Source: an uncultured Thermoprotei archaeon
GTDB lineage: Archaea > Thermoproteota > Thermoprotei > Thermofilales > B15-G2
DNA: 62,871 bases
Assembly: GCA_965367815.1 (NCBI GenBank)
Contig: CBDUKN010000017.1
Span: 1-62,871, forward strand
Reading direction: 5' to 3'
The notes beneath the pieces were generated by a model that saw only the letters and a list, made by a program, of their open reading frames with translations, had not been told where the DNA came from and made no database searches. The stretch's first letter is position 1; each line of letters begins with the position of its first letter. The translations under genes and the position numbers were made by a program. Positions 20,887 to 39,870 of the stretch are shown in pieces.

Positions 20887-21001
20887 TTTTTCCATTCTCT
20901 ATAAGAAATTACAAAATTATTGCGCCGAAATAGCAAGTAAATATTTTCTTAAACAGTGGCACTTATCTTTCTATTCTCTTTTAGAGATTTTTAGATTAAT
21001 T
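20887..21001 (-). CRISPR. Mini-array on the minus strand (repeat, ~45-bp spacer, degenerate repeat), 35-bp family
   Basis: Reverse complement of 20967-21001 = AATTAATCTAAAAATCTCTAAAAGAGAATAGAAAG; degenerate copy at 20887-20921. Confidence 0.75.
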
Positions 21002-21260
21002 TTAGACTAAGATGTTATTTATGGACCTTGGTTCAATAGTTCGAGTATATTAATTGCTGTTAAGTATATTATTTTATAGTTTATTTTACTTGAGTTTTGC
21101 AAATAAAGTATTTAAATAGAATTTTAAAGTAATAGTGTGTAGATATATGTTTTCTACAGTCTCTATTTATTTGAAAACTTATTTCTCGTGAAATATTTTT
21201 GCTGTATTTAATGACTTGTTTTCGCTTAGATTTAATACTGGGTTTAAAATATAGTTTAGT

Positions 21261-21518
21261 GTGAGAGTTATTGTTGTGTTTGATGTTCCGGTAGGCTATG
21301 ATTGGCTCCGCGACCGTTTAAGAGAAAAACTCAAAGACTTTGGAGGAACTTTTCTTCAGCGAAGTGTCTATGAAATTGACTGTGACTGGAAGACATTTAA
21401 TAAACTTTATAAAGTAGTTGATAGCGTTTTAAGAAAAGGTGCTGGCCGAGTAGACTTTATTTTCCCTTGCGCCAAGTGCTACAAGAACATAAGAATTATA
21501 GGCGGTGAACTTGATTAG
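21261..21518 (+). CDS. cas2: CRISPR-associated endoribonuclease Cas2
   Basis: VIVVFDV..LKDFG..LQRSVYE; 85 aa; C-terminal CxxC. Confidence 0.9.
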   Translation: MRVIVVFDVPVGYDWLRDRLREKLKDFGGTFLQRSVYEIDCDWKTFNKLYKVVDSVLRKGAGRVDFIFPCAKCYKNIRIIGGELD

Positions 21519-22182
21519 AGGCTATTCTCTCCAACTAAAATACAGTTTTTTCACAGTCACAGTATCTGAAGTAGTCTCTTATCTCTACTGCCCGCGCAAA
21601 CTACTCCTCATACGTACACTAGGCCTAAAAGACAAGCCGCTTGAAGAAACACTAGAGGGAGTACAGGCACACATCATATACGAGAAACTAACACTATTCT
21701 ACATGAAAACAAAAGAGAGCAAAGACTACTGGAAACTAGTTAGCGAACTCGAAGAAAAAGAAAATTTCCCCGAAATAAGAAAACTAGCAGAATTCAGATA
21801 CAGCAACCCCTTCACCTCAGCCCAAGTAGAAGTACCGGTCGAAATACAGGGAATAAAAGGAAGAATAGATATAATTGAAGACAAAACACCAATTGAAATA
21901 AAGTACAGAAATAAACTACTCGAAAGAGACGTAGTACAAGTAACATGGTATACACTACTAGCAGAAGCAGCCTTAAACAAAAACATAGACTACGCTTACA
22001 TAGACCTCCTCAAAATCCCAAAAAGAATAAAAATACACATAGACAACGAAAAAAGAATAAAAGCACTAAAAACTAGAGAAAAATGCATAAAAACAATAAT
22101 ACAAAACAACTACACATTAAAAAGAAAAAACTGCAGAAAATGCCCACTTCGGAAAGAATGCAAACTACTAAACCTAACCTAA
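21505..22182 (+). CDS. cas4: CRISPR-associated Cas4 nuclease
   Basis: YCPR, GRIDII..EIK, QVTWY and C-terminal CxxCxxxxxC Fe-S motif. Confidence 0.9.
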   Translation: MNLIRGYSLQLKYSFFTVTVSEVVSYLYCPRKLLLIRTLGLKDKPLEETLEGVQAHIIYEKLTLFYMKTKESKDYWKLVSELEEKENFPEIRKLAEFRYSNPFTSAQVEVPVEIQGIKGRIDIIEDKTPIEIKYRNKLLERDVVQVTWYTLLAEAALNKNIDYAYIDLLKIPKRIKIHIDNEKRIKALKTREKCIKTIIQNNYTLKRKNCRKCPLRKECKLLNLT

Positions 22183-22307
22183 TAAACTAAAATACCCAAA
22201 CAAACCTAAAAACATAAGCAAAAATAAAACATAAAAACAATACCACCAAAGAATTTTTACTATTCGAGTTTCCAAACAGCACCGTAAATAATCATTAGGC
22301 TGTAAAC

Positions 22308-22485
22308 AAAACTTATTTATTTTTATTTGAATATTATAGTTAAGTTTATATATTTGTTTTTTACTCCCTTATAAAGGGGTTTATAAATATTATATAGGTA
22401 TGAAATAGTGGGGGCGTTAGAAATATATTATGTTGAAGAGCTAGAATAACTGAAAAGAAAACAAACAACACTGTACCAAAACCCA
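22308..22485 (+). promoter_or_regulatory. CRISPR leader copy with imperfect palindrome (22363-22380) and TATA-like boxes
   Basis: Homologous to the sequences at 24059, 32086, 36529, 35413 and 39697; directly precedes a repeat. Confidence 0.8.
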
Positions 22486-22761
22486 CAATAATTTAAAAAT
22501 CTCTTAAAGAGAATAGAAAGTAATATAGAGCTCAAAGTATACTTAGAGCTTGAGAAAATCCTAGCAATAATTTAAAAATCTCTTAAAGAGAATAGAAAGA
22601 AAAATGTGCTATCGAATTTTATTTCTTCATTAAGAAACGGTACCAATAATTTAAAAATCTCTAGAAAAGAACAAGAAAATTAGTAGTGCTCCCATTCTAA
22701 CAGCGAAGCCTCTAAGCCCGTTCTTTCAGTGTTAATTTAAATCTCTAAAGGAGAATAGAAG
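22486..22761 (+). CRISPR. Short array: 2 intact repeats CAATAATTTAAAAATCTCTTAAAGAGAATAGAAAG plus 2 degenerate
   Basis: Repeats at 22486, 22565, 22644 and ~22733; first two spacers are 44 bp. Confidence 0.9.
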
Positions 22762-23075
22762 AAAAGGCTGATAGAGTATAAAGTAGTGTGTTTTATTACT
22801 GTTTTTTATTCTTTTTTGTTTTATTAGAGGATTCTTCTTCGTTTTCTTTTAGAAGTTCTCCTATGATTATGCTTTCTTGAACAGATAGTCCTGCGGTTAG
22901 GCCTGCTAGGAATCCTACTTTAAAGTCTCTTTTGTATTTTTTTGTCTGGCATAGGTGTCTCGTGTATATTTATTTACTTGGAAAGTATATTGTTGTCGTA
23001 TATTGAGATAAATGTGGATTTAGTGGGGCTGAGTTTGTTTTGGTTTGATGTTGCATTAAGTTTATGAAGTAGTCT

Positions 23076-23354
23076 ATGTTAGTGTATAGTAGGAGTATGG
23101 CTAAGACTATAGTTATTGAGATTCCTGATGAAGTGCTTTTAGGTATGAAGATTCCTGAGAAAGATTTGGAGAAAGTTGTTAAAGTAGAGTTAGCTATATT
23201 ATTTTATGAGAAAGGTTATTTGACTTTTGGTCAGGCTAGGAAATTATCTGGTTTATCGAAATGGGAGTTTATTGAGGAGCTGGCTAAGCGTGGAGTAAAA
23301 AGACATTATAGTGAGGAGGATTTGGAAGATGACTTACGGTTTAGTAGTGAGTAA
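23076..23354 (+). CDS. UPF0175 family antitoxin
   Basis: LAILFYEKGYLTFGQARKLSGLSKWEF...EDLEDDL. Confidence 0.9.
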   Translation: MLVYSRSMAKTIVIEIPDEVLLGMKIPEKDLEKVVKVELAILFYEKGYLTFGQARKLSGLSKWEFIEELAKRGVKRHYSEEDLEDDLRFSSE

Positions 23355-23823
23355 TTCTTCTGTTTTAATACATTTAACTAAAATAAGTAGACTTGATTTA
23401 CTTTATAAACTTTTTAAGCGAGTAGTTATTCCTTTAGCTGTTTATAGAGAATGTACAGTTGACGGGAAACCTGGATCTGAGTCTATAAAGAAAGCTTCGT
23501 GGATTAATGTCTTGAGTATTAAGAATACTGCTTTAAAGCAGAGTTTAATGTATTTTCTTGACGAAGGAGAATCTGAAGTAATTGTTCTTGCACTTGAAAT
23601 AAATGCTGACCTCGTTCTACTAGATGAAAGTGAAGCTAGGAGAATAGCTAAAAATTTTGGTCTAAATGTTACTGGAACTATAGGCATTCTGCTCAAGGCT
23701 AAGAAGAAAGGCTATATAGAAAACTTATCTAAGGAATTAAATAAGCTAAAAGCTTCAGGCTTCTGGATAGACAATAAACTTATTGAAAAAATTCTAAAGG
23801 AAACAAAAGAATCTTATAATTAA
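23311..23823 (+). CDS. DUF3368 PIN-domain (VapC-like) toxin
   Basis: VVSNSSVLI, LDEGESE, LLDE..AR and GTIGILL. Confidence 0.9.
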   Translation: MRRIWKMTYGLVVSNSSVLIHLTKISRLDLLYKLFKRVVIPLAVYRECTVDGKPGSESIKKASWINVLSIKNTALKQSLMYFLDEGESEVIVLALEINADLVLLDESEARRIAKNFGLNVTGTIGILLKAKKKGYIENLSKELNKLKASGFWIDNKLIEKILKETKESYN

Positions 23824-24058: not shown

Positions 24059-24267
24059 AAACTTATTTATTTTTATTTGAATATTATAGTTAAGTTTATA
24101 TATTTGTTTTTTACTCCCTTATAAAGGAGTTTAAAAATATTTAACAGATATAACAATAATTTAAAAATCTCTTAAAGGGAATAGAAAGTTTTAAAATCTA
24201 TGTTTAGATGTCTTGCTGCAAAGTTTCTTAATTTTCTTTATTAAATTAAAATCTTTAAAGGGAGATT
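24059..24267 (+). CRISPR. Internally deleted leader, repeat (24154-24188), spacer and degenerate repeat
   Basis: 24059-24128 is identical to 22309-22378; repeat CAATAATTTAAAAATCTCTTAAAGGGAATAGAAAG. Confidence 0.8.
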
Positions 24268-24507
24268 TATATGATTGCTTCGATTATTTTGTGTTTTAAG
24301 GTGTTTCAGTTAAAGGGTTTTGCTAGTTGTTTGAGAAAAGTTTAAATTTCTTTGTGTGAAGTTAGAGAGGAGTTTTAGTATACTATGTGGAGGAGGGTGT
24401 GGAGTTTTGTTTTATTTTTGAGAGATAGTTTGGGGTGTTTTACGGGTTTGTTGAGAAAAATTTTTAGTGCTTTTTGGTTTAATTTGTTTAGGGTTTGTGT
24501 CAAGTTT

Positions 24508-24777
24508 ATGGGTTTTGTTGAGGCTAGAGCTGTAGTGGAGGAGATTTTGCGTAGTGATTATGGACGTAGGTGCTTATTTTATGCTGGTTATGATTATTTT
24601 AGGGAAGTTCTTGTGGGGAAGGGTGCTAGGGTGGTGTATGTTGAGGAGAGTAATGGGGAGGATGATTATCCGAGCGAGTTTTGTGTTTTATTGTTTAGAG
24701 ATAGGAGGGTGGAGTTGTTTTGGAAGTTTAAGGTAGTGGAGTTGACTGAGGTTTCTTGGATAAAGGTTTCTAGGTGA
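24508..24777 (+). CDS. Hypothetical protein (likely start ATG 24508 rather than 24385)
   Basis: Open frame; upstream extension is low-complexity G/T sequence. Confidence 0.5.
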   Translation: MGFVEARAVVEEILRSDYGRRCLFYAGYDYFREVLVGKGARVVYVEESNGEDDYPSEFCVLLFRDRRVELFWKFKVVELTEVSWIKVSR

Positions 24778-24783
24778 TCTAGA

Positions 24784-25149
24784 GTGAGATACGTACATAA
24801 TATGAGGTTTATAGGGAGGGAGGTGAGGAGGCTTGAGTCTGGTGAGGAAGTTGAGTTTGGTGTCTTGGAGTATAGTGATTTTCGTGGACGTAGGTGCCGT
24901 GTTTTAGTTACGAGAGTGTGGTTTGAGAATAGTTTAATTTACCTTGAGTTCTTTTCGTGTAATAAGAGGCTTCTTGTTAAGGCTGTGAAGTATTTTGGGG
25001 AGTTTTTTGGAGCATTTTTCTTTATGAAGAAAAAGCTCGTGCAATATAGTGGGGGCTATGTGTACGCGTTTTACAATACGCAGGTTGTTTTAGAGAGAGC
25101 GCTTGAAGTATTTGAAGGAGATAGAGTGCGGCTGCTGAACTGTGGTTAA
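24784..25149 (+). CDS. Hypothetical protein
   Basis: 121-aa ORF preceded by AGGTGA SD. Confidence 0.6.
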   Translation: MRYVHNMRFIGREVRRLESGEEVEFGVLEYSDFRGRRCRVLVTRVWFENSLIYLEFFSCNKRLLVKAVKYFGEFFGAFFFMKKKLVQYSGGYVYAFYNTQVVLERALEVFEGDRVRLLNCG

Positions 25150-25243
25150 TTATTTTGTTGAGTCAGCTTTTGGGAGGAAAATTTTATAGCTTACTGCAAA
25201 AGATGGTTAAATATATTGGAAAGGATTTATATACTATTGAGTC

Positions 25244-25381
25244 ATGTTATTTAATGTAAAGGTGACTGTTAGAGTAGTTTTGGATAAAAAGCTTGTGGAT
25301 AGGATTAGAGAAATTAGTAAAGGGAGGCTTTTTGATGAAGTAGTGGCTGAGCTTTTATCGAAGGCTTTAGAGAGCGTGTAA
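25244..25381 (+). CDS. Small ribbon-helix-helix-like protein (45 aa; not in ORF track)
   Basis: MLFNVKVTVRVVLDKKLVDRIREISKGRLFDEVVAELLSKALESV; TTTATATA box upstream. Confidence 0.55.
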   Translation: MLFNVKVTVRVVLDKKLVDRIREISKGRLFDEVVAELLSKALESV

Positions 25382-26398
25382 TTTGTTGCTGGCTGTGAGC
25401 TGAAGTATTTTTGTTGATAGTTTTTGTTTGAATATTTTTGTGTTTAGTAGTGTTTTGCATGTTTTGTCTGCGTACTCTATTAGTAGTGGGAAGCCTTTTG
25501 CCGAGAGTTGCGAGTCAGCTATTATTGTCGCCATTGCCTTTTCTAGTCTATCTTCGTGGCATTCTGCTAGGTAAGGTGATTGGTGTGTTTTGTATACGCA
25601 GAGGACTATTTCTTCTCCATGGGTTTTTAGGAATTCTTCTACTATTGGGCGGTCTCTGCGCGGGAGTCCTCTTGGCTTTATTAGTTTGGATAGTGGTCCT
25701 AATACTATGTATTCTCCTGGCTCTAGTAGTAGTCCTAGGCTTATTGCTCTGAGTCTCGATGTTCTCGTGATTACTGATGAGAGTTTCTTTGACTCTACTA
25801 TTTTCTGTGATAGTTCTAGGCATTTTTCTAGTAGTCCTGGTGTTTTTAGGCGTAGACGGAATTCAAGTGGTAGTAGTGGTCCGTGTACCAGTGCTTCTTG
25901 GTGTGGTGTCTGTAGAGCGAAGTGTCTTTCGTAGTAGAGCATTATTGTTTTATAGAGTAGTCTTGTCTGTGCTCTAGTTTCTTCTATTTTCTTTAAGTAC
26001 TCTGCTATGTTTTCTGCTTCTCCTTCAATAAAGTCTTGGTCTGCTACGTATGTTGTGTAAGTGACTGCTGTCTGAGTGTAGGATATTATTACTACTCCTA
26101 TTCGGCAGCGCGCGCCTGTTGGTGTAGGGTATATTGATAGTGTTCCGTCTACTCCACATACTTTTCCTTCGACTAGTCTTTTTAATGCTTCTTTTAGTTC
26201 TTTTTCTGAAGGCTTTTTAAGCCTGTTTTCTAGTAGCCTTTTTTCTTCAACATATTTTCTTAGTTTTCTTTTTAGCTCTACGTAGTGTTTTGCTGCTTCT
26301 TCTGTTAGCTTATTTTCTATTTTCATGTACTCGTGGTATTGCATCCACTTAATCGACTTTACTACTTCTCTGAAGTCTTTGAGCAGTACTTCTTCCAC
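25367..26398 (-). CDS. nurA: NurA-family nuclease
   Basis: CGVDGT, HGPL and GFPLLIEYAD motifs; adjacent to herA. Confidence 0.85.
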   Translation of the reverse strand: MEEVLLKDFREVVKSIKWMQYHEYMKIENKLTEEAAKHYVELKRKLRKYVEEKRLLENRLKKPSEKELKEALKRLVEGKVCGVDGTLSIYPTPTGARCRIGVVIISYTQTAVTYTTYVADQDFIEGEAENIAEYLKKIEETRAQTRLLYKTIMLYYERHFALQTPHQEALVHGPLLPLEFRLRLKTPGLLEKCLELSQKIVESKKLSSVITRTSRLRAISLGLLLEPGEYIVLGPLSKLIKPRGLPRRDRPIVEEFLKTHGEEIVLCVYKTHQSPYLAECHEDRLEKAMATIIADSQLSAKGFPLLIEYADKTCKTLLNTKIFKQKLSTKILQLTASNKLHAL

Positions 26399-26448
26399 AA
26401 ATAGAATACGCAGTAGTGCTTAATTAGCTTAATTTACTATCTATTAAT

Positions 26449-28071
26449 GTGGAAGAGAAAGTAGTAGGTTTCACGGCATTTGATAAGAGGAGAGACTCTT
26501 CTAACAGTATTCTAGCCTATGTGCCTGAAGAAAAAGCCGATGCTCTGGCTCGAGGAAAATATGTTAAAATAGTTTCAGACTACGGAGGTAGTACTAGGGT
26601 TTTTGTAGGCAGAGTGACTGGAGGTCCTTTTTACGAGACCGAGGGTGTTGACGTGGCTTCGGCTGAAGTAGACGTGATGGTGTCTCATCCTCTTATTGAA
26701 CGTGTGCCCCAGTACCGTGCTGTATATGAGGTAGAGGTTTTAGGAGAAGTAGAGGATGCTGTGAAAATGGTTTTGAAGTCTTCTTATACTAGACCTAGGC
26801 CTAAGTCAAAAGTTTTTCTCTTGTCGCCTCTAGAGCTCTCGAAGTACTTTAGGTTCGAGTCTCGTGGAATGCTTCTTGGCCACCTTATGCACTATAAAGG
26901 CGTTAAAGTCTACTTAGATCCCGGCGACATTAATGTTCTTCCGAGGAACTTGGGTATATTTGGTACTGTTGGGAGCGGTAAGACTAATACTGCTCAAGTT
27001 CTTATAGAAGAGGCTTCTAGGTGTGGGTGGGCTGTCGTAGTAATTGATGTTGAGGGCGAGTACGTGTACATGGATCAGCCTAACGACAGTGATAAAATGA
27101 TCCGTATTCTCGAGAGCGAATATAAGCTTGAGCCTGAGGGTCTCAGAGACTTCGGGGTGTATGTGCCTGAGCCCTCGGAGTACTGTGTTAGGAGAGACGC
27201 AGATAGTTTTTCGCTCTCTTTCTACGACTTAACTCTTCCTCTTGTCTTAGAGATTATTAGGGCTAATGAGCCTCAGGAAAGAAGGCTTAGCCGTGTCTGG
27301 AGAAAGCTTGAGGAAAGTGTTTTGAAAGAAGAAGAGCCAGCTGATGCTTTCGAGGAATTTATTGGCGCTAGAACTGAGGCTAAGAAAGGATTTACTCTCA
27401 GAGAGCTTATTGAGCGCGTAGAGCAGCTGGCTGAGCAAGCTAAAGTTAGGAGACAGACCTACGACGCTACGAGCTATGAGGCGATAGCGAGTAAGCTTGA
27501 GCGCCTTGAGGCGACAGGGCTCTTTGATAAAGACCGCATTTTGTCTGTGGATGAGCTTCTTGTTCCAGGTAGAGTTTCTGTAATAGATGTGAGCGATGCA
27601 AGCGATACTGTCAAGAATATTGTTATTAGCTGGCTTTTGCTCAAAATATTTTCAGCTAAATTGAGGAATCCCAGGGCTCCTAAAACACTATTTATTATAG
27701 AAGAGGCTCATACTTTTGTCTCGAAGGAGAAAGCTGAAGCTATGCGCACTACACTCGACATGCTTAAAACTATAGCTAGGAGAGGTAGGAAAAGGTGGCT
27801 TTCGCTCTGCTTTATATCACAGCAACCAGGCCACTTGCCTACCGAGATCTTTGAGCTCTGCAATACTAGGATAGTGCACCGCCTTATGAGCGAGTATAAT
27901 TTAAGGGCTCTTAGAGAAACTACGACAGGTGTTGCTAGAGAAGTCTGGAGGACTGTGCCGGGGTTCCATGTAGGCGAGGCTTTATTGGCGTCGCCTCAGC
28001 TGCCTCACCCAGTTTTAATGAAAGTGAGACCTGCTAAAACAATGAGAGCTCGCTTAACAGAGCTACGCTAG
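26449..28071 (+). CDS. herA: HerA-family ATPase/helicase
   Basis: HAS-barrel-like N-terminus, GTVGSGKT, DVEGEY, IEEAH, ARRGRK, SQQP. Confidence 0.92.
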   Translation: MEEKVVGFTAFDKRRDSSNSILAYVPEEKADALARGKYVKIVSDYGGSTRVFVGRVTGGPFYETEGVDVASAEVDVMVSHPLIERVPQYRAVYEVEVLGEVEDAVKMVLKSSYTRPRPKSKVFLLSPLELSKYFRFESRGMLLGHLMHYKGVKVYLDPGDINVLPRNLGIFGTVGSGKTNTAQVLIEEASRCGWAVVVIDVEGEYVYMDQPNDSDKMIRILESEYKLEPEGLRDFGVYVPEPSEYCVRRDADSFSLSFYDLTLPLVLEIIRANEPQERRLSRVWRKLEESVLKEEEPADAFEEFIGARTEAKKGFTLRELIERVEQLAEQAKVRRQTYDATSYEAIASKLERLEATGLFDKDRILSVDELLVPGRVSVIDVSDASDTVKNIVISWLLLKIFSAKLRNPRAPKTLFIIEEAHTFVSKEKAEAMRTTLDMLKTIARRGRKRWLSLCFISQQPGHLPTEIFELCNTRIVHRLMSEYNLRALRETTTGVAREVWRTVPGFHVGEALLASPQLPHPVLMKVRPAKTMRARLTELR

Positions 28072-28886
28072 CTCTCTATGTAGGGTAAAAGTATTTTAAT
28101 CCACTTCTTCAGTTTTACTTTCTTTTGGTCTTCTATTGTAACTAGTCTTCTTTCAGAAAGCTCTTTGAGGACGTTTTCTTCTATTTCGTCTGCAGGAAGG
28201 AATCCGTGTAGTTTTTCTCGCTCATATATTTTCTTGAGTTCATTTAAGTATACTGCTTTAACTGTGAGGGGGATTGAGGGTAATTCGACGTGTTCTCTGA
28301 AGTTTTCGTGAATGTAGTAGACTGAGTCTACATTGAGGAGGAAAGCAGCTATTATTAGGAAAGAGGTTTCGGGCTTGAATCCTGCTGTAGCGCAGACATA
28401 TACTTTGTGGCCTGCTTTCTTGTACTCGCTTATAAGCTTACAGGCTGTGTCAAGGAGACTCATTAAGCCTTCTTCGAATACCACGCCAAAGCCTTTAACT
28501 ACTTTGACTTCAGTGTCTATACCTGCTTTTTCCGACAAGTACTTCTTGACTATGGATGAGCAGAAATAGCCTACTCCTGTGTCTGTTGAAAGAAGTAGTA
28601 CTTTGTCTACAAGCCCATTTTCTAGGAAGTATTTGAGTGAGTTTAGTTCAGCGCTCATAGTATATGGGTCTTTAACTACCATAGTGTAGACTTCGTTAAA
28701 TACTCTCGATGTTATAGAGACGTGCTCTTTCAGTTCAAGGTCTTCAGGGGACCCGGGTGTAGCTAACTTAGCTTTAATTAAAGTGTTTTTAATATCTTCG
28801 GATATATCTTTTTTCAGAGCGTTCGCTACAATAGATGTGCCTGTAGTGACTAAGTGTACGTGCATAGTTACTTTATGCTCTAGCAC
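28068..28886 (-). CDS. APE2256/SSO1393-family CARF + wHTH protein (Crn1-type ring nuclease candidate)
   Basis: TTGTS, SAELNSL, STDT, ATAGFKPE and YIHE motifs. Confidence 0.85.
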   Translation of the reverse strand: MLEHKVTMHVHLVTTGTSIVANALKKDISEDIKNTLIKAKLATPGSPEDLELKEHVSITSRVFNEVYTMVVKDPYTMSAELNSLKYFLENGLVDKVLLLSTDTGVGYFCSSIVKKYLSEKAGIDTEVKVVKGFGVVFEEGLMSLLDTACKLISEYKKAGHKVYVCATAGFKPETSFLIIAAFLLNVDSVYYIHENFREHVELPSIPLTVKAVYLNELKKIYEREKLHGFLPADEIEENVLKELSERRLVTIEDQKKVKLKKWIKILLPYIES

Positions 28887-28910
28887 TTAAAATATTTTGT
28901 GAAAACCTGG

Positions 28911-30191
28911 TTACTGGGCACTGTTTTCGAAAAACAGGCTTTTTCTACTTTTCTCTAAAATCTTTTCGACATCCCAGACTTCTATGTCTTCTGGCTCTTT
29001 TTCGAGAACACTTGTCTCAGGAACTATTAGTATTTTTTGAATGTTTTTGAATTTACCGAGTTTCTCTTCGACTGTTTTTACTTCTTTTCGCGGTACATAG
29101 TTTTTCCATTTAACTTCACCAACTAATTTAAGTCTCTTAAACTCTAAGAGAGCTATATCTACTTCAAGCTCTCTTTCTTCAATTATTTGATACTGTAAAC
29201 CAAGGATCTTCGATAAAAGATTTCTAAAAAACTGTTCTACGTGTCTGGGAAGCTTCTCGTTTACTACTCTTCTTATAAATTTTTTCGGTATATCTAGCTC
29301 TGTATAAGAGTACTTGCTTTCAAGATAGTAGTGTAAATCTAGTAGAGGCGACTTGTGGAAATACCTGTACTTTTTCTTATTGAATACTTTTATTTTCTCT
29401 AAAATACCCATTTCCGTTAAAATATTTAAGTATTTTTGTAGAATACCTGGATTATCTTTAGCTAAAAGTCCTCTAGAGAAAAGCAGAGAAGATATTTCCG
29501 TACTAATGTTTTTTCCATCTGCTACAGCTTTTAAAACGCCCTCGTAAATATTTGTAAGTTCTCTTTCTTCTTCTCTAAACACTTCTCCTACGAGCTCTTT
29601 TAGTATTAGCTTGCCGTCGTAGAGAAAGTCTGCAAGAAAGTCTCTAATGTTTCCTCCTCTGTAAAAGGGAATAAGCATTACTTCTCTGAGGTACACTGAG
29701 CTCTCAACTAGCTCTTTCCCCTGGAAATCTTTCGACAACTCTACTAGAATTTCTCTCTCGTCGACTAAATCTATTTTAACGGGCTTTACTAGTCCTAAGA
29801 GAGGCTGACCTCTACCTATTATTTTCTTCGCTAGCCAGAGAGTCGACGTTATCAGAATTAAATTACCTTTAATTCCTAATGCGTGTAGAAAATCTAGGAA
29901 ACTTTCGGGAAGTCTATGAAACTCGTCTACAACTATTGTTTTATCTTCAATAATTTCTCTAAGTATTTTAATAAATTCTCTATATGTATAGAATTCTCCC
30001 GACTCTTTATCTAAAACTGTTCCATCTCTATTGACGAAGAAAAACTTATCGTAGGGAATAAAGTTTTCTACTAAAAAGGTTTTCCCAGTTTTCCTTCTAC
30101 CATAGACCATTACCCAAGGCAAACTCCTTCTAATCCTCGAGATTTCTATTCTTCTGGGAATTATTCTCACGGGAATAATGAATATGAACAT
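28911..30191 (-). CDS. Archaeal ATPase (ATPase_2) with wHTH and C-terminal PD-(D/E)XK-like domain
   Basis: GRRKTGKT, VVDEFH, EVDI..GEVKW. Confidence 0.88.
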   Translation of the reverse strand: MFIFIIPVRIIPRRIEISRIRRSLPWVMVYGRRKTGKTFLVENFIPYDKFFFVNRDGTVLDKESGEFYTYREFIKILREIIEDKTIVVDEFHRLPESFLDFLHALGIKGNLILITSTLWLAKKIIGRGQPLLGLVKPVKIDLVDEREILVELSKDFQGKELVESSVYLREVMLIPFYRGGNIRDFLADFLYDGKLILKELVGEVFREEERELTNIYEGVLKAVADGKNISTEISSLLFSRGLLAKDNPGILQKYLNILTEMGILEKIKVFNKKKYRYFHKSPLLDLHYYLESKYSYTELDIPKKFIRRVVNEKLPRHVEQFFRNLLSKILGLQYQIIEERELEVDIALLEFKRLKLVGEVKWKNYVPRKEVKTVEEKLGKFKNIQKILIVPETSVLEKEPEDIEVWDVEKILEKSRKSLFFENSAQ

Positions 30192-30276
30192 AATATATAA
30201 CTGCTTCTCTCTTTAGCAAACTGAGCTCTGGTTATTCGGGGGAAAGTTTAATGAAGTAAAATGCTGTATAGAAAAT

Positions 30277-30786
30277 GTGGAGAATATTTTGAGTATGCTT
30301 ATTGAAAGAAAATGCATACCTTTAAGTGAACTAGATGAGAAGACTGTAAGAAAACTGACTAGAAGCGGTTTTGCTAAAGTAGGTGGAGGCTTTCTTTACC
30401 CTACAGAAGCTCTTCTCGAAGCTTTTTCTAATGAGAAAATATATGGAAAAAAAGGATTAGTGCTCCTAAGCCCTAATGGAGCCTTTTTCACTAAAAGTAA
30501 ATTCGGTAAAAGTTTTCTCCGCAAATACTTTATTGTAGTAGAAGGCTGGCTTGAAGGAGAGTCTCCTACACTACTTCCTCCAGCATCCGCTCTTGTACTC
30601 GAAGCAGAAGAATCTTTTCTCAAAGGAAACTATGGACTAGCTAGAGCTAAGCTCCTCCAGGCAGCAGAACTAGCTAGAAATAAAGCACTTAAAGAGAAAG
30701 TAGAGAAAACACTGTCTTCAAGTGACCTCAAAGAAGTTTTAGAAGAATTTAAAAAGAGGCTGGGACTACGAGAGGAACAATTCTAA
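30277..30786 (+). CDS. Unknown protein with wHTH-like N-terminus and helical C-terminus; candidate Argonaute partner
   Basis: 169-aa ORF overlapping the start of the Ago reading frame. Confidence 0.65.
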   Translation: MENILSMLIERKCIPLSELDEKTVRKLTRSGFAKVGGGFLYPTEALLEAFSNEKIYGKKGLVLLSPNGAFFTKSKFGKSFLRKYFIVVEGWLEGESPTLLPPASALVLEAEESFLKGNYGLARAKLLQAAELARNKALKEKVEKTLSSSDLKEVLEEFKKRLGLREEQF

Positions 30787-31973
30787 GAAAACCTGTACTA
30801 AAGTTCCGTGAAGGCACTGCCCTAACTCCACTAGAAGGATTCCGCTTAGGTTTCAAGCCATGGAGCGGGCCAAGCCAAGTAACACTAACAGTCGTAGCCC
30901 TCAGAAAAGTATCTACTGAAGCAAAAAAACTAGTCGAGAGAACAGTCTACGGCTACAAATGGTTCAAAGGACTAGAAGAGTGGTTCGACATAGAAGTACC
31001 CGAAATAAACTTCATAGAAGTCTCTAGCACTAAAGAGTACTTCGAGAAAATAGAAGAAATACCCTACACTACAGTAGTGCTCACAGTAATACCTGACGAA
31101 ATGAGCGTAGACTACGACGAAGACCCCTACATGCCTCTCAAACAAGAGTACGCGAGCAGAGGAATACCGAGCCAAATGATAAACTTCTCTACATGCAGAA
31201 ACTTGAGAGAAAGCCCAGTAGTACTCTATAACATCGCCTTAAATATCTATGCTAAAGCAGGAGGAATACCCTGGATATTAGCAGAACCTCTCCAAACAGA
31301 CGCAGCAATAGGACTAGATACAGGCGGAGGAGCAGCAGCTGCAACACTCCTCTACAACTGGACAAACCTAAATTTCACTTGGGAAACAGAAGCAAATCCA
31401 TCAGTAAGAGAAGTACTCTCCCTAGAAACTCTACTAAACAAACTAATAGAGAAAATAGCTGAAGAAAACAAGCCCCCATCAAACATAGTATTCCACAAAG
31501 AAGGACTATTCCACCCAAAAGAAATACAGCTCTTACGGAAACTAGTAGAAGACTGGAAAACCCAAGGACTAGTAGAAGAAAACTTCCAGTACACTGTAGT
31601 AGAGGTCAAGAAAAAATGCGTACCAAGAATACTCCGAGAACAAGGACCCCGCTACTACAACCCAGTCAAAGGAACATGCCTAATACTAGACAAATACAAA
31701 GCACTAGTAACTACAACAGGCTACCCAGACAAAATACTCCACACAGCCCCAGTAAAACCACTAATAGTCGAAATAGCAGACACAAGCAACTGGGACACAG
31801 CAAACATACTACAGTATGCAAAACAAGTCTACTGGCTATCAGAACTACACTGGGGATCAGGAATATTCACCTCAAAATACCCCATAACAACACTATACGC
31901 ACACAGAATAATAGCATTCTGGACCCAAGGAATACACCCAGCAGAACAAGAAAACACACTATGGTTCCTATAA
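30753..31973 (+). CDS. ago: Prokaryotic Argonaute, MID-PIWI only (~400 aa); start codon unresolved
   Basis: Frame open from 30753. ILRKPVLKF..PLEG N-terminus; MID Y-K-Q-K (YMPLK, SQMI, YAKAGG); PIWI GLD, HKEG, YPITTLYAH; C-terminal LWFL. Confidence 0.92.
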   Translation, partial: KEAGTTRGTILRKPVLKFREGTALTPLEGFRLGFKPWSGPSQVTLTVVALRKVSTEAKKLVERTVYGYKWFKGLEEWFDIEVPEINFIEVSSTKEYFEKIEEIPYTTVVLTVIPDEMSVDYDEDPYMPLKQEYASRGIPSQMINFSTCRNLRESPVVLYNIALNIYAKAGGIPWILAEPLQTDAAIGLDTGGGAAAATLLYNWTNLNFTWETEANPSVREVLSLETLLNKLIEKIAEENKPPSNIVFHKEGLFHPKEIQLLRKLVEDWKTQGLVEENFQYTVVEVKKKCVPRILREQGPRYYNPVKGTCLILDKYKALVTTTGYPDKILHTAPVKPLIVEIADTSNWDTANILQYAKQVYWLSELHWGSGIFTSKYPITTLYAHRIIAFWTQGIHPAEQENTLWFL

Positions 31974-32085
31974 ACCACAAAACAGTCAAAGAAAACAGTA
32001 AAAACAAACAAAACCAGTAAATATAATTAAAAGTCACCAAACCCTCCTCACAATACCCCATAAAACAATCCAAACCAAAAAAACT

Positions 32086-32263
32086 AAAACTTATTTAATC
32101 TTATTTAAATACTACAGTTAAACTTATATATTTGTTTTTTACTCCTTTATAAAGGAGTTTAAAAATATTTAACAGACATAAAATAATGAAAACACTAAAA
32201 ATATATTACACTAAAGATACAGAATAAGTGAAAAGAGAACAATCTAACCCAACCAACGATCCT
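32086..32263 (+). promoter_or_regulatory. CRISPR leader with perfect 18-bp palindrome ACTCCTTTATAAAGGAGT (32141-32158)
   Basis: Homologous to the other leader copies; precedes the array. Confidence 0.85.
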
Positions 32264-32880
32264 CAATTAATTAAAAATCTCTTAAAGAGAATAGAAAGTA
32301 GGCTTAAGTATGAGTGCTCTTATGTTACTGTGGGAGATATTAAATACAATTAATTAAATCTCAAAAAGAGAATAGAAAGTCCACGCTCCCCATTTCCTCT
32401 ACCCTCTCTTTCACCCAGTCGACTTAATTAATTAAATCTCAAAAAGAGAATAGAAAGGACTAGGAAGATGCACTGTTATCAGATACATAACACTCTTCCT
32501 ACCATTCTTACGCCTTAATTAATTAAATCTCAAAAAGAGAATAGAAAGAGAATTTTGTTCCAAGTATACAAGTGCCATCAGGCTTTGGCCAAATAACTTA
32601 ATTAATTAAATCTCAAAAAGAGAATAGAAAGAAAAGAAATTATCACTAGAAAGTCGCTGGGAGAAACACATATATCTTCTTAATTAATTAAATCTCAAAA
32701 AGAGAATAGAAAGTTGGAATAAAGTATGTTGGAGGAAGTTCTCTGAAAAACACTGTGAGCCTAGGCTTTCTCTTAATTAATTAAATCTCAAAAAGAGAAT
32801 AGAAAGTACGCCCAGTTCTTGAATATCTTCATCGGTTTCAATACTGCATCTTAATTAATTAAATCTCAAAAGAGAATGAC
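32264..32880 (+). CRISPR. CRISPR array: 8 repeats (consensus CTTAATTAATTAAATCTCAAAAAGAGAATAGAAAG), 7 spacers of 43-58 bp
   Basis: Repeats at 32264, 32347, 32423, 32514, 32597, 32679, 32772 and 32850 (degenerate). Confidence 0.96.
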
Positions 32881-34280: not shown

Positions 34281-34541
34281 TCTCACCAAAAGAAAACTCA
34301 CATAAAACTATTTAAACAATCATTAAACTTTTAAAAACAAAGCTCTCGCAACAATACATATAATTCAACAAAATATCTAAAACATCTTCAATATGAGATG
34401 AAAAATAAACGGAAAATACTAACATTTTACTATGGAAAACCACAGCAAATAAGAACACATGAACAAAAGCCACTAAGTACTTAGAGAATATTGTTTTGCG
34501 GTATTATTTATATTTTTGTTTGATATTTAGTTGTTGGGGTT

Positions 34542-35412: not shown

Positions 35413-35631
35413 AAAATCTATTTAATTTATTCAAACACCATAGTTGGTTTATTCGATTGTTTCTTTATAAATATTATATAGACATAAAATAATTGAAAAG
35501 AGAAAAATTCAATATAACTCATACTATAATTAATTGAAAATCTCTAGAGAAAAATAAAGGAATAGGAACTGCACTCTGAATCTCTTGGCTACGTAATTAA
35601 TTTAAAAATTTATTAAAAAGAGAATAGAGAG
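35413..35631 (+). CRISPR. Decayed leader plus two degenerate repeats (35528-35559, 35595-35631) around one spacer
   Basis: Leader fragments TTTATAAATATTATATAGACATAAAATAATTGAA; repeat-like AATTAATT.AAAATCTCT and AAAGAGAATAGAGAG. Confidence 0.65.
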
Positions 35632-35751
35632 TTTAGCTATTTGTATATAATTTTATGTAGAAGAGGGTTCTCTAAGGGTTATTGCGTTGCTGTGTTTTTA
35701 GTTAATTGCTTGTGTTACGTTAGTTATAAATATTGTGCTATGTATATATGA

Positions 35752-35991
35752 TTGGTGTGTTATGTGAATAGTGTTACGATTAGTGTTAGGATTCCGCGGG
35801 AGCTTAAGGAGAAGATTGATAGGTATGGTGTTAGAGTTAGCGAGGTTGTTAGGAGGGCTTTAGAGGAGGAGGTTAAGAGGAAGGAGTTTGAAGAAGCTGT
35901 TAGGGCTGCTGAGGAGCTTGGTGAGCTTTTTTCCAGGATACCTGATGAAGAGATTGTGCGTATTATTAGGGAGGGTAGGAGGACGAGATAG
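35752..35991 (+). CDS. VapB-type RHH antitoxin
   Basis: ISVRIPRELKEKI..SEVVRRALEEEV. Confidence 0.85.
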   Translation: MVCYVNSVTISVRIPRELKEKIDRYGVRVSEVVRRALEEEVKRKEFEEAVRAAEELGELFSRIPDEEIVRIIREGRRTR

Positions 35992-36410
35992 TGTATTTGC
36001 TTGATTCTAGTGCAATAGCAGTTCTTTTAAAGAGACTTGGTGGGAGTGCCGTAAAGTATTTTGCTGGAGTGTATACACTTGACTTAGCTTACTATGAACT
36101 AGGTAATATTTTATGGAAAGAATGTGCTTTAATGAAATTAATAAATGAGAAAGAAGCTGTAAATAAAGTTAAGTATATAGCTAAACTTCTAAAAACCATG
36201 AATATTGAAAGTATTAAATCGGAAAAAGACTTAGAGGGAACGATGGCGCTTGCAGTAAAACTTAAACTAACTTTCTATGACGCATCATACCTCTATGTAG
36301 CTAAAAAGAAAAACCTCATACTCGTAACCGAAGACCATGAACTCAGAGAAAAATCAGTAAAAGAAAATATTGAAGCCATAACCGTAGATGAGTACATAAA
36401 ACAAAAGTAA
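35991..36410 (+). CDS. vapC: VapC PIN toxin
   Basis: LLDSSA, YELGN, TFYDASY, TED. Confidence 0.9.
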   Translation: MYLLDSSAIAVLLKRLGGSAVKYFAGVYTLDLAYYELGNILWKECALMKLINEKEAVNKVKYIAKLLKTMNIESIKSEKDLEGTMALAVKLKLTFYDASYLYVAKKKNLILVTEDHELREKSVKENIEAITVDEYIKQK

Positions 36411-36528: not shown

Positions 36529-36817
36529 AAAACTTATTTAATTTTATTTAAAGACTACAGTAAAGTTTATATATTTGTTTTTTACTCCTTTATAAACAGG
36601 TTTATAAATATTACATAGACATAAAATAATTGAAGCGACAAAATATATTAATACTAAAAACACAGAATATTCGAAAAGAGCATAAACAATGCCAATTCAC
36701 GACCCAAATTAATTTAAAAATCTCTTAAAGAGAATAGAAAGGGTCGCATACTTCTTCATAGCAGAGAACCACCTTGCCTTCTAATTAATTTAAAAATCTC
36801 TTAAAGAGAATAGAAAG
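36529..36817 (+). CRISPR. Leader (36529-36706) plus mini-array: two identical repeats AATTAATTTAAAAATCTCTTAAAGAGAATAGAAAG around a 41-bp spacer
   Basis: Repeats at 36707-36741 and 36783-36817. Confidence 0.9.
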
Positions 36818-36832
36818 TTAATATAATATTCT

Positions 36833-37240
36833 TTGCTGAAAATACAGGTATATAAGGTAATTCCTGGAGCTCCTCCGAGCAGAGAGGAGAAAGCCGAAGT
36901 CTCTATTACATCGAATCCTCGGGGAGCAAGAGTCTACGTAGTCAACAAGTACGTGGGCACTACTCCTCTTAAATTAAAGCTTGCTCCCGGTACATATACT
37001 ATTAAAATTGCTAAAGAAGGCTATAGAGAGTATGTTACGACTATTAAAGTCTCAGCAGGTGAAACTAAGAGCGTGTCTACTCAGCTAGAGAAAAAGCCGA
37101 GTGAAGTAGGTGGCGGACTTCTAGGTAATTTAACTATTATTGCTGTCGTCGTAATTATAGCAATTGTAGTGGTTGCTGTAGTATTCTTTGCTTTGAGGAA
37201 GCGTAGACCGCCTCCCCTCTCCACAGTAATTCTACTTTAA
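36833..37240 (+). pseudogene. C-terminal fragment of a PEGA-domain surface protein
   Basis: ITSNPRGARVYV..GTTP..PGTYTIKIAKEGY plus TM; no signal peptide; abuts the array. Confidence 0.7.
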
Positions 37241-37338
37241 TTTTTCAATGTGTTTAGTGTTAGTTAGAGTTTAGGGTATTTGAGTAGTTTTAAGTAGCTT
37301 TGAGTAGTGTTTTATAGTGCTGTTTTGAGGAGTTTAAC

Positions 37339-38802
37339 GTGGATAGTGTAGGAGACGGTATTTCTAGGTATTTGAGCTGGATTAGTTCTTGGAAGCAGGG
37401 TAAAGGTATTTATGGCGGTCTCCACGTCCATTCTTGCTGGAAAGTCTCTAGTGTTCTTGAGAAAAAGTATCAGGGAGTTACTGTTTCAGAGTACTTTGGT
37501 CTTATTAGAGGCTTCCTCAACTTATACAGTAAAACGGGCTACGAGTATTTTCTACTAGAAGCTAAAGCTATGTGTGATGCCCTATGTAGTCTTTTAGGCT
37601 CTGATGGCTGTTTTGAGCACAGTGTATATGAATTTGAGCCTGGTAGAGGAGGCTGTATACATAATGCTTTAGCCGACCTTGCTCTCCTCTCTTTCGCCGA
37701 AGCTCTAGTAGATGAGAACAAAGACCCTGATCCCTACTTGAAGACTGTTGAAAAGAACTTTGAGTGGTTTATGAGCTACTGGTGGAAGAGAGGTAATGCT
37801 TGGCTGAAGAATCCTAGTTTTCCTTGCTGGTGCGGTGTAACTAATCAGGATCTTGCTGTATGTTGGGCTATGGCCCTCTACGGCGAGCTCAAAGACAGGA
37901 AGTACTGGGAAGAGTATGGTTCGCGTGTCGCCTACTGGTATCTCGAGAACTATTTTCTGCCAGAATACAGGTGTTTTCTTAGAGGCGATGAACCCGAGTT
38001 CCCCGAACCCGCTCCCTACCACGGGCTTATTTCCTATGAGCTAGTCGAGCTCTATAAGCTTACAGGAGACTCGCTATTTCTTAAAAGAGCACTCGATGTC
38101 ATAGAATACTTGTATGAAAACTCCTGGATCGACAAGTATGGCTTAAGGAGAATTCACCACAATATAGACTTGAAGACAGGAAGAGTTTCATTAAAGCCTT
38201 CTCTCGTTACTCAAGGCTCGCTTATCTGCGCACTTGAGGAACTAGAAGATTTAGGTGTAGATAGGTTTAAGGAGTTTAAAGAAGAGCTGGTAAAGACTCT
38301 GCTTTTCTATCAGTCTGGTAGAGGCTACTTCCGTAACTCAACTGACTTCAATAACTTCTTTGATATTGTTTCGAGGATGTGTCCAGGCGAATTTGAAGCG
38401 CTGACCACTATATGGAGGGGAGGAAGTCTTCAACTTGAATCAGAGTATGCTTTGAGTATAGATTTTTCAGGAAAATACATTTGGTTTGACTCTGACTGCT
38501 GTTGGGAGCTCCGCGGAGACAATAGAGCAGTATATGGGCTTAAGCATATGAGTAACGGTATTTTCTCAGGAAGTATTTTCGGGAACAAAGTTCAGGTCTC
38601 TATGAAAAACAACTTTATTGTGCTTGAGCTAGACTTGCCTAAATACTCTTCTGTGTGCTTAGACCATGTCGTCGATCAGAACGTGTTGCTGAGAGTCAAG
38701 TTAACTAGTCCACTGAAGCTAGGAATTAAGCTGTGGGATGGGCGGAGACTGTGCCTTGATTTAAGTAAAGGTGTACACGAAATTTCTTCCAGTAGCTTGT
38801 AG
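37339..38802 (+). CDS. (alpha/alpha)6-barrel protein (glycoside hydrolase/epimerase-like)
   Basis: Repeated helical LY..TG...L..A motifs; aromatic-rich. Confidence 0.55.
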   Translation: MDSVGDGISRYLSWISSWKQGKGIYGGLHVHSCWKVSSVLEKKYQGVTVSEYFGLIRGFLNLYSKTGYEYFLLEAKAMCDALCSLLGSDGCFEHSVYEFEPGRGGCIHNALADLALLSFAEALVDENKDPDPYLKTVEKNFEWFMSYWWKRGNAWLKNPSFPCWCGVTNQDLAVCWAMALYGELKDRKYWEEYGSRVAYWYLENYFLPEYRCFLRGDEPEFPEPAPYHGLISYELVELYKLTGDSLFLKRALDVIEYLYENSWIDKYGLRRIHHNIDLKTGRVSLKPSLVTQGSLICALEELEDLGVDRFKEFKEELVKTLLFYQSGRGYFRNSTDFNNFFDIVSRMCPGEFEALTTIWRGGSLQLESEYALSIDFSGKYIWFDSDCCWELRGDNRAVYGLKHMSNGIFSGSIFGNKVQVSMKNNFIVLELDLPKYSSVCLDHVVDQNVLLRVKLTSPLKLGIKLWDGRRLCLDLSKGVHEISSSSL

Positions 38803-38835
38803 GAATGCTTATGTTTCGTTTAGAGGCTATTTACT

Positions 38836-39663
38836 GTGTCGAGTATTGTCGAATACAATCTTAGTTTTATTGTAGACACGAAAGTTCCTTTAACTGCTTT
38901 CTCAGGCGTATTCGTTTACAGAATGTTTCTTACACTTATTTCTTCAATAGACTCTATTTTAGCAGAAGAACTCCACGGCTCAAAGAAATTTAAGCCTATT
39001 TCATGCTACCCAGTCTACATCAACAACCGATTAATTAAACACGGAGTCCTTGTACCAAATAGAGTCTACTCAACTAAAGTCATTATACTGTCAGAAGATG
39101 TTAACTTGAAGTTCGCTAGAGCACTACTCGACACCTGCGTAGAATCAATAGATTTACCTGCTTGCCGCGTTAAAGTCAAAAATATTTCACTTAAAATAAC
39201 TTCATTTGACCAAATACTAGAAGAAGCCTCTAAAACCGAGATAAATGATGAATTCACAATAGTCTTTCAAACACCATGCCAGTTAGGCAAATTAACTAAG
39301 TCTAAAAAGAAGCCCATATTCAGGCTATTCCCAGACTCCTACTACTTACTCCGAAACATCTACAACTACTGGAACGCATACTCAAACACAGTCTTCACAG
39401 AAGACTTCCTAGAATGGGTCAACGAAAACATATTCGAGAAAAAATACAAACTATCAACAGAGCCAGTATACCTAGGAGAGGGAAGAATAACAGTAGGCTT
39501 CACAGGAAAATGCACATACAGCATAGCAGACAGTAACAAAGAATACCTAAAAAAGCTAACAGCACTCCTAAACTTCGCACAACACGTAGGCATAGGAAAA
39601 CACCGCAGCATAGGCATGGGAAGAATTAGATGGAGTTTTCTGGAAAATAAAAATCAATCGTAA
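38836..39663 (+). CDS. cas6: CRISPR endoribonuclease Cas6
   Basis: LH..KP, FQTP, GFTG and C-terminal G-loop GIGKHRSIGMG. Confidence 0.92.
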   Translation: MSSIVEYNLSFIVDTKVPLTAFSGVFVYRMFLTLISSIDSILAEELHGSKKFKPISCYPVYINNRLIKHGVLVPNRVYSTKVIILSEDVNLKFARALLDTCVESIDLPACRVKVKNISLKITSFDQILEEASKTEINDEFTIVFQTPCQLGKLTKSKKKPIFRLFPDSYYLLRNIYNYWNAYSNTVFTEDFLEWVNENIFEKKYKLSTEPVYLGEGRITVGFTGKCTYSIADSNKEYLKKLTALLNFAQHVGIGKHRSIGMGRIRWSFLENKNQS

Positions 39664-39696
39664 GCTACGCTCAAAACATACAATTAATTTCAGCAT

Positions 39697-39870
39697 AAAA
39701 CTTACTTAATTTAAAGATCATAAATAAGAGTATTGTTTACTTTACTCCCTTATAAAAGAGTTAAAACTTGACAAATATAAAGTAATGAAAATTACTAAAA
39801 ATATATAAAAGCTCAATCTATAAAAGAAAATAAATAATACTACTCTCTTTGCAGATTAATTTAAATAATA
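39697..39870 (+). repeat. Degenerate leader copy with only a repeat stub
   Basis: AAAACTTACTTAATTT..ACTCCCTTATAAAAGAGT (39744-39761)..ATTAATTTAAAAT. Confidence 0.6.

Follow-up and report, generated by a model that had tools for sequence, protein, structure and literature searches.

Dispersed CRISPR leaders and repeats as probable homology for block exchange in a decaying type III locus of an uncultured Thermoprotei archaeon

Introduction

Why should a row of very short CRISPR arrays, most of them with a leader of their own, alternate with blocks of defence genes? This question is raised by a locus between 20.9 and 39.9 kb of a 62,871-nt stretch of DNA from an uncultured Thermoprotei archaeon, the window of this study, which is the entire contig C17 (CBDUKN010000017.1) of a 37-contig, 2.45-Mb genome (G000, assembly GCA_965367815.1; completeness 99.4%). 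A first-pass annotation made from the letters alone proposed that leader and repeat homology might capture and shuffle defence cargo in an integron-like manner, rather than serving only as spacer memory. The comparison with related strains and species presented here leads to a probable answer: scattered leader cores and repeats have served as partners in homologous recombination and so shaped a type III CRISPR locus that is now decaying in this lineage.

Results

A clustered family of leaders and repeats

Repeat finding in the window yielded a 213-nt family at 22308, 24058, 32086 and 36529 (identity 61-100%) and 13 copies of a CRISPR repeat of ~35 nt. A leader profile made of the window copies at 22308, 32086 and 36529 and the leader of G001, the sole same-genus relative among the compared genomes, was searched with nhmmer and gave six leader copies between 20.9 and 39.9 kb, the matches at 22308, 32087 and 36530 holding by construction since the profile was built from them (Table 1). 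The seven dispersed units listed in the first-pass annotation are thus real, comprising six leader copies and the leaderless repeat pair U1, and a further leader remnant recognised by eye is probably an eighth; the second-species contig L019 has a 63-nt leader fragment at a seemingly equivalent place, ~1.1 kb beyond the shared stretch. The units combine direct repeats with unique spacers, as CRISPR arrays do: the repeats of ~35 nt recur with a period of 75-93 nt, at 2 to 8 per unit in the five array-bearing units, and the conserved AT-rich leader expected upstream of a first repeat is present in six window copies and missing from U1. That most units hold 0-3 spacers was also borne out (U1 1, U2 3, U3 0-1, U5 1, U6 1, U7 0), with U4, at seven, as the exception.

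All real genome copies of this leader and repeat are confined to C17. Because 17 of the 19 DNA matches to the leader in the 2.45-Mb assembly, and 15 of the 22 matches to a 24-nt repeat core (up to 5 mismatches; the remaining seven solitary), fall on this contig, the clustering is far beyond chance. Within the class, 2 of 120 genomes (G000 and G001) have strong leader matches, with two weak short matches besides; a smaller comparison gave a leader match in 3 of 61 relatives. Pattern scans of viral contigs returned 0 matches to the leader core and 0 to the repeat, leaving a virus- or plasmid-borne origin of the units unsupported, and no Rfam family reached its gathering score anywhere in the window. 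A separate array of another repeat family, cut off at the contig end, lies near the beginning of the window (Table 1); its repeat also adjoins the genome's only cas1, on contig C8.

Alignment of 19 leader copies from the window and ten related loci resolved a leader of ~180-270 nt, in which an upstream TTTTAC(A/T)AT motif is followed by ~40 variable bases, a nearly invariant core of ~100 nt, a copy-variable part of ~75 nt and the first repeat. The core contains a TTATAAAG-centred palindrome (13-18 nt) and a TTTATAAATA TATA-like box, and ends in TTTTTTACTCC(C/T)TTATAAAGG(G/A)GTTTA(T/A)AAATATT, that is, the palindrome and then the box. Between distant relatives the core is ~80-87% conserved, against ~75% for the flanking genes. 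The short leader form, found at 24059 and, in a different setting, behind the pAgo gene of contig L024, is fused to the repeat at about core position 97, with the junction at a shared AATAAT microhomology.

Block differences between strains of one species

Related loci were obtained by a leader-core pattern scan of metagenome contigs, which returned nine loci from eight contigs; these loci, fetched via the leader, are centred on it, hence leader neighbourhoods are over-sampled. The same-species contigs come from one metagenome and are 98-100% identical to the window inside blocks, and two further sets of relatives are a second species (G001 and look-alike contigs, ~70-85% identical to the window) and a third relative (~75%). 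The window sequence or a part of it occurs in 20 of 22 listed public runs, the labelled ones being hydrothermal-vent, marine or sediment metagenomes. Positions 1-67 resemble what we take to be an Illumina/Nextera adapter and are probably untrimmed read sequence rather than genome.

Independent contigs reproduce the orders U2, toxin-antitoxin (TA) pair, U3 and block 4, U5, VapBC, U6, PEGA at 98-100% identity, so misassembly of those joins is unlikely. While the blocks of same-species contigs are nearly identical, leader 3' parts and arrays are unrelated. Three of the four large structural differences among these contigs fall at units, which with 100 nt on each side make up ~3.7 of 27 kb, roughly 14% of the region: a ~16-kb module at U4, a ParE cassette in a duplicated leader 4 and a 5.5-kb block at U1. 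The fourth, away from the units, is a 0.8-kb indel missing from contig _1000579 (L023) and covering a TnpB/Cas12f-like C-terminal fragment with a TNB domain (20064-20594).

Arrays differ in length as well. U2 has 4 repeats in the window and ~27-30 in contig _1000579 (~27 by repeat matches), U6 has 2 against 3 in contig Ga0190367_1000445 (strain contig L018), and in the latter contig 21 repeats stand behind leader 4. Read in window orientation, that contig has pAgo ahead of leader 4, and behind the array come GATase, cas2, a pAgo-N-like gene, two cas1 genes, csx1, Cas10 (HD) together with six RAMP genes, another leader with 9 B-type repeats, and then block 4; at the site of this ~16-kb module the window passes from leader 4 through a single A-type repeat to seven B-type ones. 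The two adjacent cas1 genes of the sister module encode 309 aa and, in a shorter copy, 266 aa (L025 2522-4248). Directly upstream of cas1 the sister strain encodes a 397-aa protein resembling the N-terminal half of a long pAgo/PIWI protein (L025 4245-5438); it has no similarity to the 169-aa open reading frame (ORF) upstream of the window Piwi gene, and the idea of a split pAgo gene was dropped.

The crossovers themselves can be placed in the ParE variant. Contig _1016014 (L024, 2.5 kb) runs from pAgo through a short leader and repeat and DUF7557/ParE/UPF0175 genes to a full leader 4. Compared with window leader 4, its first leader copy is identical upstream (80/80) and almost so in the core (55/55 and 44/46) and diverges in the variable part (26/71); its second copy diverges upstream (32/78), agrees in the core (48/54 and 49/50) and is identical in the variable part (70/70). 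These reciprocal chimeras fit a single crossover, within the leader core, of the chromosome with a leader-bearing cassette, or the reverse deletion. The leader of L025 departs from the window leader at the same border between core and variable part.

Contig _1000579 carries a degenerate copy of U1 with the additional 5.5-kb block at its distal end. This block (L023 3347-8274), absent from the window, holds a radical-SAM/SPASM gene, two ABC ATPase and two ABC-2 permease genes and resembles a peptide-maturation and export cluster.

Three joints among Logan contigs, inspected as possible circle or deletion junctions, have other explanations. The backward joint from 36822 to 32263 has 36 letters between its sides, which are a repeat-spacer-repeat piece of a sister array; the joint from 32208 to 36784 has a side of 31 nt and fits a repeat; and the joint from 20851 to 21114 in X2 fits an L023-type variant.

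Rearrangement in more distant relatives

Both other sets of relatives place the same blocks beside different neighbours or have the leader inverted, in line with the expectation that block order should change between related genomes. In the second species, two contigs have Ham1 joined to the leader with block 4 and a third has AAA_21/csx1 there, with identity beginning at the leader edge or stopping at the leader-repeat border; cas2 is inverted beside another block, and cas2-cas4, U2 and the TA block are absent between 20846 and 24153. Synteny with G001 ends right behind cas6, at the U7 site, and in the third relative (L026) the leader is inverted next to block 3. In the more distant contig L020 the leader directly abuts a type III module, which argues that this adjacency is ancestral and makes loss in the window lineage the simpler reading.

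One segment departs from the general level of divergence. Positions 24290-25744 (~1.5 kb, the start of block 3, covering two orphan ORFs and the 3' part of a 343-aa ORF) are 96-98% identical in the second species (G001 C173, L019), as opposed to 70-85% in the other shared segments, and this difference suggests that the start of block 3 was recently exchanged between species, next to a unit. Arrays seem to have another role at U6: the PEGA surface protein has at least 635 aa in L019 (9815-11719) and is reduced in the window to its last 135 aa, starting at the array end, so arrays also serve as ends of illegitimate deletions.

A type III locus without its effector

No match to the sister strain's Cas10 protein and no RAMP family (PF03787) match was found in G000, so the effector is absent from the genome; cas1 is absent from the locus, the only cas1 of the genome being the one on C8 that adjoins the second repeat family. 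Cas10 and RAMP genes are present in sister contigs L018 and L020. Outside the span of the units, the window also encodes a Csx1 (CARF and HEPN; 6131-7726) and, at 17672-19187, a CARF fragment with a CARF_PIN-like ORF behind it, further leftovers of type III signalling in a genome that has no effector complex.

A strand-composition sawtooth centred on the units

Keto skew, (G+T)-(A+C), traces a sawtooth across positions 16800-42000 of the window, with values that are strongly negative immediately to the left of each unit, strongly positive immediately to the right, and decay over ~2-4 kb. Skew was also followed on C8 (1-15000) and in loci L018, L025 and L039-L048. Such values are rare, since an absolute skew above 0.3 occurs in only 1.6% of 200-nt windows genome-wide, and C17, with 2.6% of the genome, holds eight of the 17 strongest upward jumps across all contigs. 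All 19 measurable unit borders (window, C8 and related loci; many are orthologous copies and not independent) jump upward by 0.23-0.98, which puts them no lower than the 98th percentile of random positions. The window's seven units jump by 0.27-0.86, and the leader remnant between U4 and U5 coincides with the strongest composition jump of the genome. For comparison, of 1416 ordinary gene boundaries in the rest of the genome, 33 have a jump of at least 0.27, two of at least 0.47 and none of 0.75, which rules out a plain gene-boundary effect. Cytosine falls to 4-7% right of units and guanine to 4-10% left of them. Beside the units in L019 and L023 there also recurs a C-rich, G-poor stretch of 200 nt (window 20651-20851) that is 88-95% conserved in surroundings that differ.

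The signal resides in third codon positions (cas4 -0.68, pAgo -0.71, vapB +0.78, HEPN +0.64), which excludes amino-acid composition as the cause, and its sign is set by the side of the nearest unit for genes on either strand, which excludes gene strand. Across all genes a weak 5'-to-3' skew trend of the same sign was seen (mean 0.055, 1212 ORFs). The upward jump is not confined to this locus: eight other genomes of the order contributed ten cas1 neighbourhoods with 13 measurable arrays, of which 12 jump upward and eight exceed the pooled 95th percentile; a further six arrays lacked a flank. The sign agrees with a plus strand exposed on the right of a unit and a minus strand exposed on the left, as divergent transcription or replication forks leaving the unit would give. 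A model in which breaks at the units are resected and the 3' overhang is then deaminated was discarded, for by reasoning it predicts the opposite sign. A non-exhaustive literature search found no description of such skew jumps at CRISPR arrays.

Genes between and around the units

Gene labels were checked against Pfam and PADLOC, and those of nurA and GH additionally against NCBIfam. Most of the earlier labels were upheld by Pfam and PADLOC (cas2, cas4, UPF0175/DUF3368, HerA, CARF, AAA_14, Piwi/pAgo, HEPN-MNT, a weak RHH-like match with PIN, the PEGA fragment and cas6), whereas the ORFs called nurA and GH have no family in any of the three databases. The former, of 343 aa, is one of 3 proteins found among 5.8 billion clusters, the window's own included, and its AlphaFold model (pLDDT 37.5) is too poor for a fold search; the latter has 487 aa. 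For the 130-aa orphan at 24385-24777 there was no usable Atlas match. The frame of the short pAgo is open from its listed start, yet its first ATG/GTG/TTG codon stands at 31077. Among all 77 window ORFs scanned against Pfam (35 and 42 in two parts), no integrase and no tyrosine or serine recombinase family was detected.

Table 1. Positions of the CRISPR units, leader matches and genes in the window.
Feature	Positions	Strand	Remarks
Array of another repeat family	89-1787	+	26 repeats; cut off at contig end
U1	20887..21003	-	Two CRISPR repeats (distal degenerate), one spacer; no homologous leader
cas2	21261-21518	+	Pfam, PADLOC
cas4	21505-22182	+	Pfam, PADLOC; no cas1 beside cas2-cas4
U2	22308..22763	+	Full leader (22308-22485) and 4 repeats, 2 degenerate
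Leader match (nhmmer)	22308-22484		E 5e-46; full length
TA-like pair UPF0175/DUF3368	23076..23823	+	Pfam; PADLOC candidate system PDC-S70
U3	24059..24188	+	Short leader (positions 2-97 only) joined straight to one repeat
Leader match (nhmmer)	24059-24154		E 4e-21; leader positions 2-97 only
Block 3	24189..32085	mixed	Two orphan ORFs, 343-aa ORF, herA, CARF, AAA_14, short pAgo
343-aa ORF (earlier nurA)	25367-26398	-	No family
herA	26449-28071	+	Pfam, PADLOC
CARF (APE2256)	28068-28886	-	Pfam, PADLOC
AAA_14 ATPase	28911-30191	-	Pfam, PADLOC
Short pAgo (Piwi), open frame	30753-31973	+	Pfam, PADLOC
U4	32086..32880	+	Full leader, one A-type repeat, 7 B-type repeats (last degenerate); hybrid array
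Leader match (nhmmer)	32087-32262		E 4e-42; full length
Probable leader remnant	34420..34530	+	Upstream TTTTACTAT motif and degenerate 5' core, no repeat; by eye
HEPN	34542-34973	+	Pfam
MNT nucleotidyltransferase	34940-35383	+	Pfam; pairs with HEPN
U5	35413..35635	+	Degenerate leader without palindrome, two degenerate repeats
Leader match (nhmmer)	35414-35510		E 5e-5; degenerate
VapB-like RHH protein (weak match) and PIN-domain VapC	35752..36410	+	Pfam
U6	36529..36823	+	Full leader and 2 repeats
Leader match (nhmmer)	36530-36705		E 1e-43; full length
PEGA-domain protein	36833-37240	+	C-terminal 135 aa only; cut at U6's last repeat
487-aa ORF (earlier GH)	37339-38802	+	No family
cas6	38836-39663	+	Pfam, PADLOC
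U7	39697..39870	+	Degenerate leader, no clear repeat; E 1e-3
Leader match (nhmmer)	39699-39787		E 1e-3; degenerate

Discussion

The locus is probably best explained by homologous recombination between dispersed leader cores and repeats within a type III locus in decay. Homology of the units, block differences from strain to strain, crossover positions and the absence of effector genes from the genome were all observed directly. One leader family in six to seven copies, together with repeats of ~35 nt, would supply dispersed direct homology, and ordinary homologous recombination between leader cores or repeats, presumably carried out by the general recombination enzymes of the cell, could excise, insert and reorder the blocks between units, among them TA pairs, CARF/HerA/pAgo genes and cas modules. 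In this lineage the direction of change would have been loss, in which ~16 kb with the type III effector, csx1, two cas1 and one cas2 disappeared and orphan mini-arrays, cas2-cas4 and cas6 stayed behind; excised blocks may be able to re-enter as circles. The short arrays look like products of erosion in a genome devoid of the effector and of this locus's cas1 rather than a specialised cassette site, because sister arrays are long (21-27 repeats) and both components were lost here. The earlier suggestion that units act as recombination sites therefore holds in part: blocks are gained, lost and reordered in relatives with breakpoints in leaders or repeats, and the units do more than keep spacers, although arrays that are long in sister strains are real memory nonetheless. 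Its integron-like component is not supported, given that no recombinase family occurs among the 77 ORFs, that no Logan contig spans a circular junction and that some breakpoints lie off the units.

Several observations weigh against this picture of leader and repeat recombination. The U4 and U6 arrays share no spacer with the sister contig, so the hybrid U4 is not a simple one-step product of the sister arrangement. Since loci were fetched by leader, the share of breakpoints near units is inflated, and short contigs such as L024 could be chimeric at the conserved core. Gain and loss were judged from a single outgroup contig, and the Logan contigs of four runs end at units, none of them containing a circular junction. 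The junction that truncates PEGA is illegitimate, not homologous, and breakpoints also fall off the units at 25744/27883 (a herA deletion in G001), 19825/20651 and 42745.

It is improbable that this is no more than a usual CRISPR locus with several arrays, set in a defence island that varies, where the units are plain memory and the blocks arrived by insertion sequence (IS) or TnpB activity, TA mobility and illegitimate recombination. Multiple arrays with conserved leaders and TA pairs in cas regions are known in archaea (PMC4390879; PMC13748974); besides, the window contains a TnpB fragment, an IS1595 transposase adjoins an array in L022, and not every breakpoint is at a unit. Such a locus leaves unexplained, however, why three of the four large same-species differences sit at units and why reciprocal chimeric leaders surround the ParE cassette, an arrangement predicted by leader-leader crossover and not by transposition. 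The degenerate mini-arrays are very unlikely to be regulatory CRISPR-like RNAs of the CreA/CreR/crlRNA type, controlling downstream TA or cas genes with leader promoters driving all as one unit. All five small cassettes (UPF0175/DUF3368, HEPN-MNT, VapBC, PEGA-cas6 and the ParE cassette in L024) do stand downstream of a same-strand leader or remnant, several repeats are degenerate, and mini-arrays of this sort have been described (bioRxiv 10.1101/2023.03.03.530964). Yet a blastn-short comparison of the 14 spacers with the genome gave no non-self match, even partial, on C17, and genome-wide only matches at chance level (E 0.02 or worse), bar one of 19 nt on C7; moreover, no effector complex is left in the genome to use such RNAs, and in sister strains the arrays at these units are long and normal.

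Active site-specific capture of blocks as giant spacers by a Cas1-family integrase at the leader-repeat junction, in the manner of casposases or integrons, would accord with the pair of adjacent cas1 genes within the sister module and with junctions exactly at a repeat edge (24153 and 36823/36833). We consider it very unlikely indeed, since each block has a repeat at one end and a leader at the other, without duplicated repeats, the crossovers lie inside the leader core, ~75-125 nt upstream of the leader-repeat junction, the 77-ORF scan gave no tyrosine or serine recombinase family, and the locus in this genome is without cas1. Scarcely credible, finally, is the notion that repeated sequence misled the assembly into creating the units or their order, a concern raised already with the first description of the units and fed by Logan contigs that stop at units and by the adapter-like contig start assumed above. 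The order of U2, U3, U5 and U6 recurs at 98-100% identity in independent JGI contigs that span them. Overall identity among leader copies is no higher than 61-82%, the spacers are unique, and the runs shared by A and B repeats, of only ~15 nt, are too short for a false join.

A broader proposal joins recombination to the composition sawtooth, and we put it forward as a speculation with rather low expectation. Leader, repeat and cargo would form self-contained defence cassettes that move within and between co-occurring Thermoprotei species by leader-core crossover, and each leader and array would also be the hub of a strand-asymmetric process reaching 2-4 kb to both sides. Movement between species draws support from the first 1.5 kb of block 3, which is 96-98% identical between genomes that otherwise share ~70-85%. 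Divergent transcription accompanied by R-loops is one candidate for this process, and replication that starts in a recombination-dependent way is another; the process is proposed to drive loss of cytosine from the exposed strand and to rewrite synonymous sites in adjacent genes. Provided that the effect is real, the upward jump would mark CRISPR arrays in general among these archaea, and if it reflects damage linked to transcription or replication, it would provide a readable footprint of array activity in uncultivable genomes. The sawtooth is the part of these results most worth following up.

As to recombination between leaders and repeats, the locus offers a natural case, with sister strains identical at the level of 98-100%, in which these elements appear both as immune memory and as homology for rebuilding a defence island, including the loss of a CRISPR effector and the gain or loss of TA cassettes. 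It thereby bears on how CRISPR-Cas systems are lost or exchanged in nature and on the persistence of orphan mini-arrays.

Comparison with known systems

The locus is unusual in the density of leader copies, the layout of one leader per block and the crossover chimeras; otherwise it follows known CRISPR-locus dynamics. Integrons consist of an IntI integrase, attI/attC sites and a row of accessory-gene cassettes. Here, too, a row of small, mostly same-strand accessory blocks is split by a recurring element, and content varies between close strains; unlike integrons, the locus seems to have no attI/attC sites, the scan of the 77 ORFs found no IntI-type tyrosine recombinase beside the row, the recurring element has its own promoter-like box, and recombination is apparently homologous. 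The integron analogy is one of layout only, not of mechanism. Many loci with a leader and few repeats also occur in Methanocaldococcus jannaschii. A survey of 542 Thermococcales and Methanococcales leaders reports long conserved motifs upstream of many arrays per genome (PMC13748974); as compared with that account, the leaders of the present locus all lie within 19 kb, are interleaved with gene blocks and form crossover chimeras. The CreTA/crlRNA mini-arrays (bioRxiv 10.1101/2023.03.03.530964) share with the window short, partly degenerate repeat pairs in a cas and TA neighbourhood; here, in contrast, no spacer-to-promoter complementarity was found, and the same units bear long normal arrays in sister strains.

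Closer parallels exist in cas regions that rearrange. In Sulfolobales, vapBC pairs are interspersed among cas cassettes, and the sections of Garrett et al. (2015, PMC4390879) dealing with these regions describe, much as in the window, variable TA-rich regions, separate adaptation and interference cassettes and rearrangement through recombination between similar elements; the recombining elements named there are transposable elements, whereas here they are CRISPR leaders and repeats, with one leader per small block. In the E. coli I-F system, according to Almendros et al. (2014, PMC3903273), cas-F lies between CRISPR4.1 and CRISPR4.2, and strains without cas-F carry a single merged CRISPR4.1-2 array. 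Both cases thus have cas genes between two arrays of one repeat type and module exchange at arrays or leaders, and the locus of this Thermoprotei archaeon differs from the E. coli arrangement in having 7-8 units instead of two, homology that includes a 100-nt leader core, TA and other defence cargo, and a type III module.

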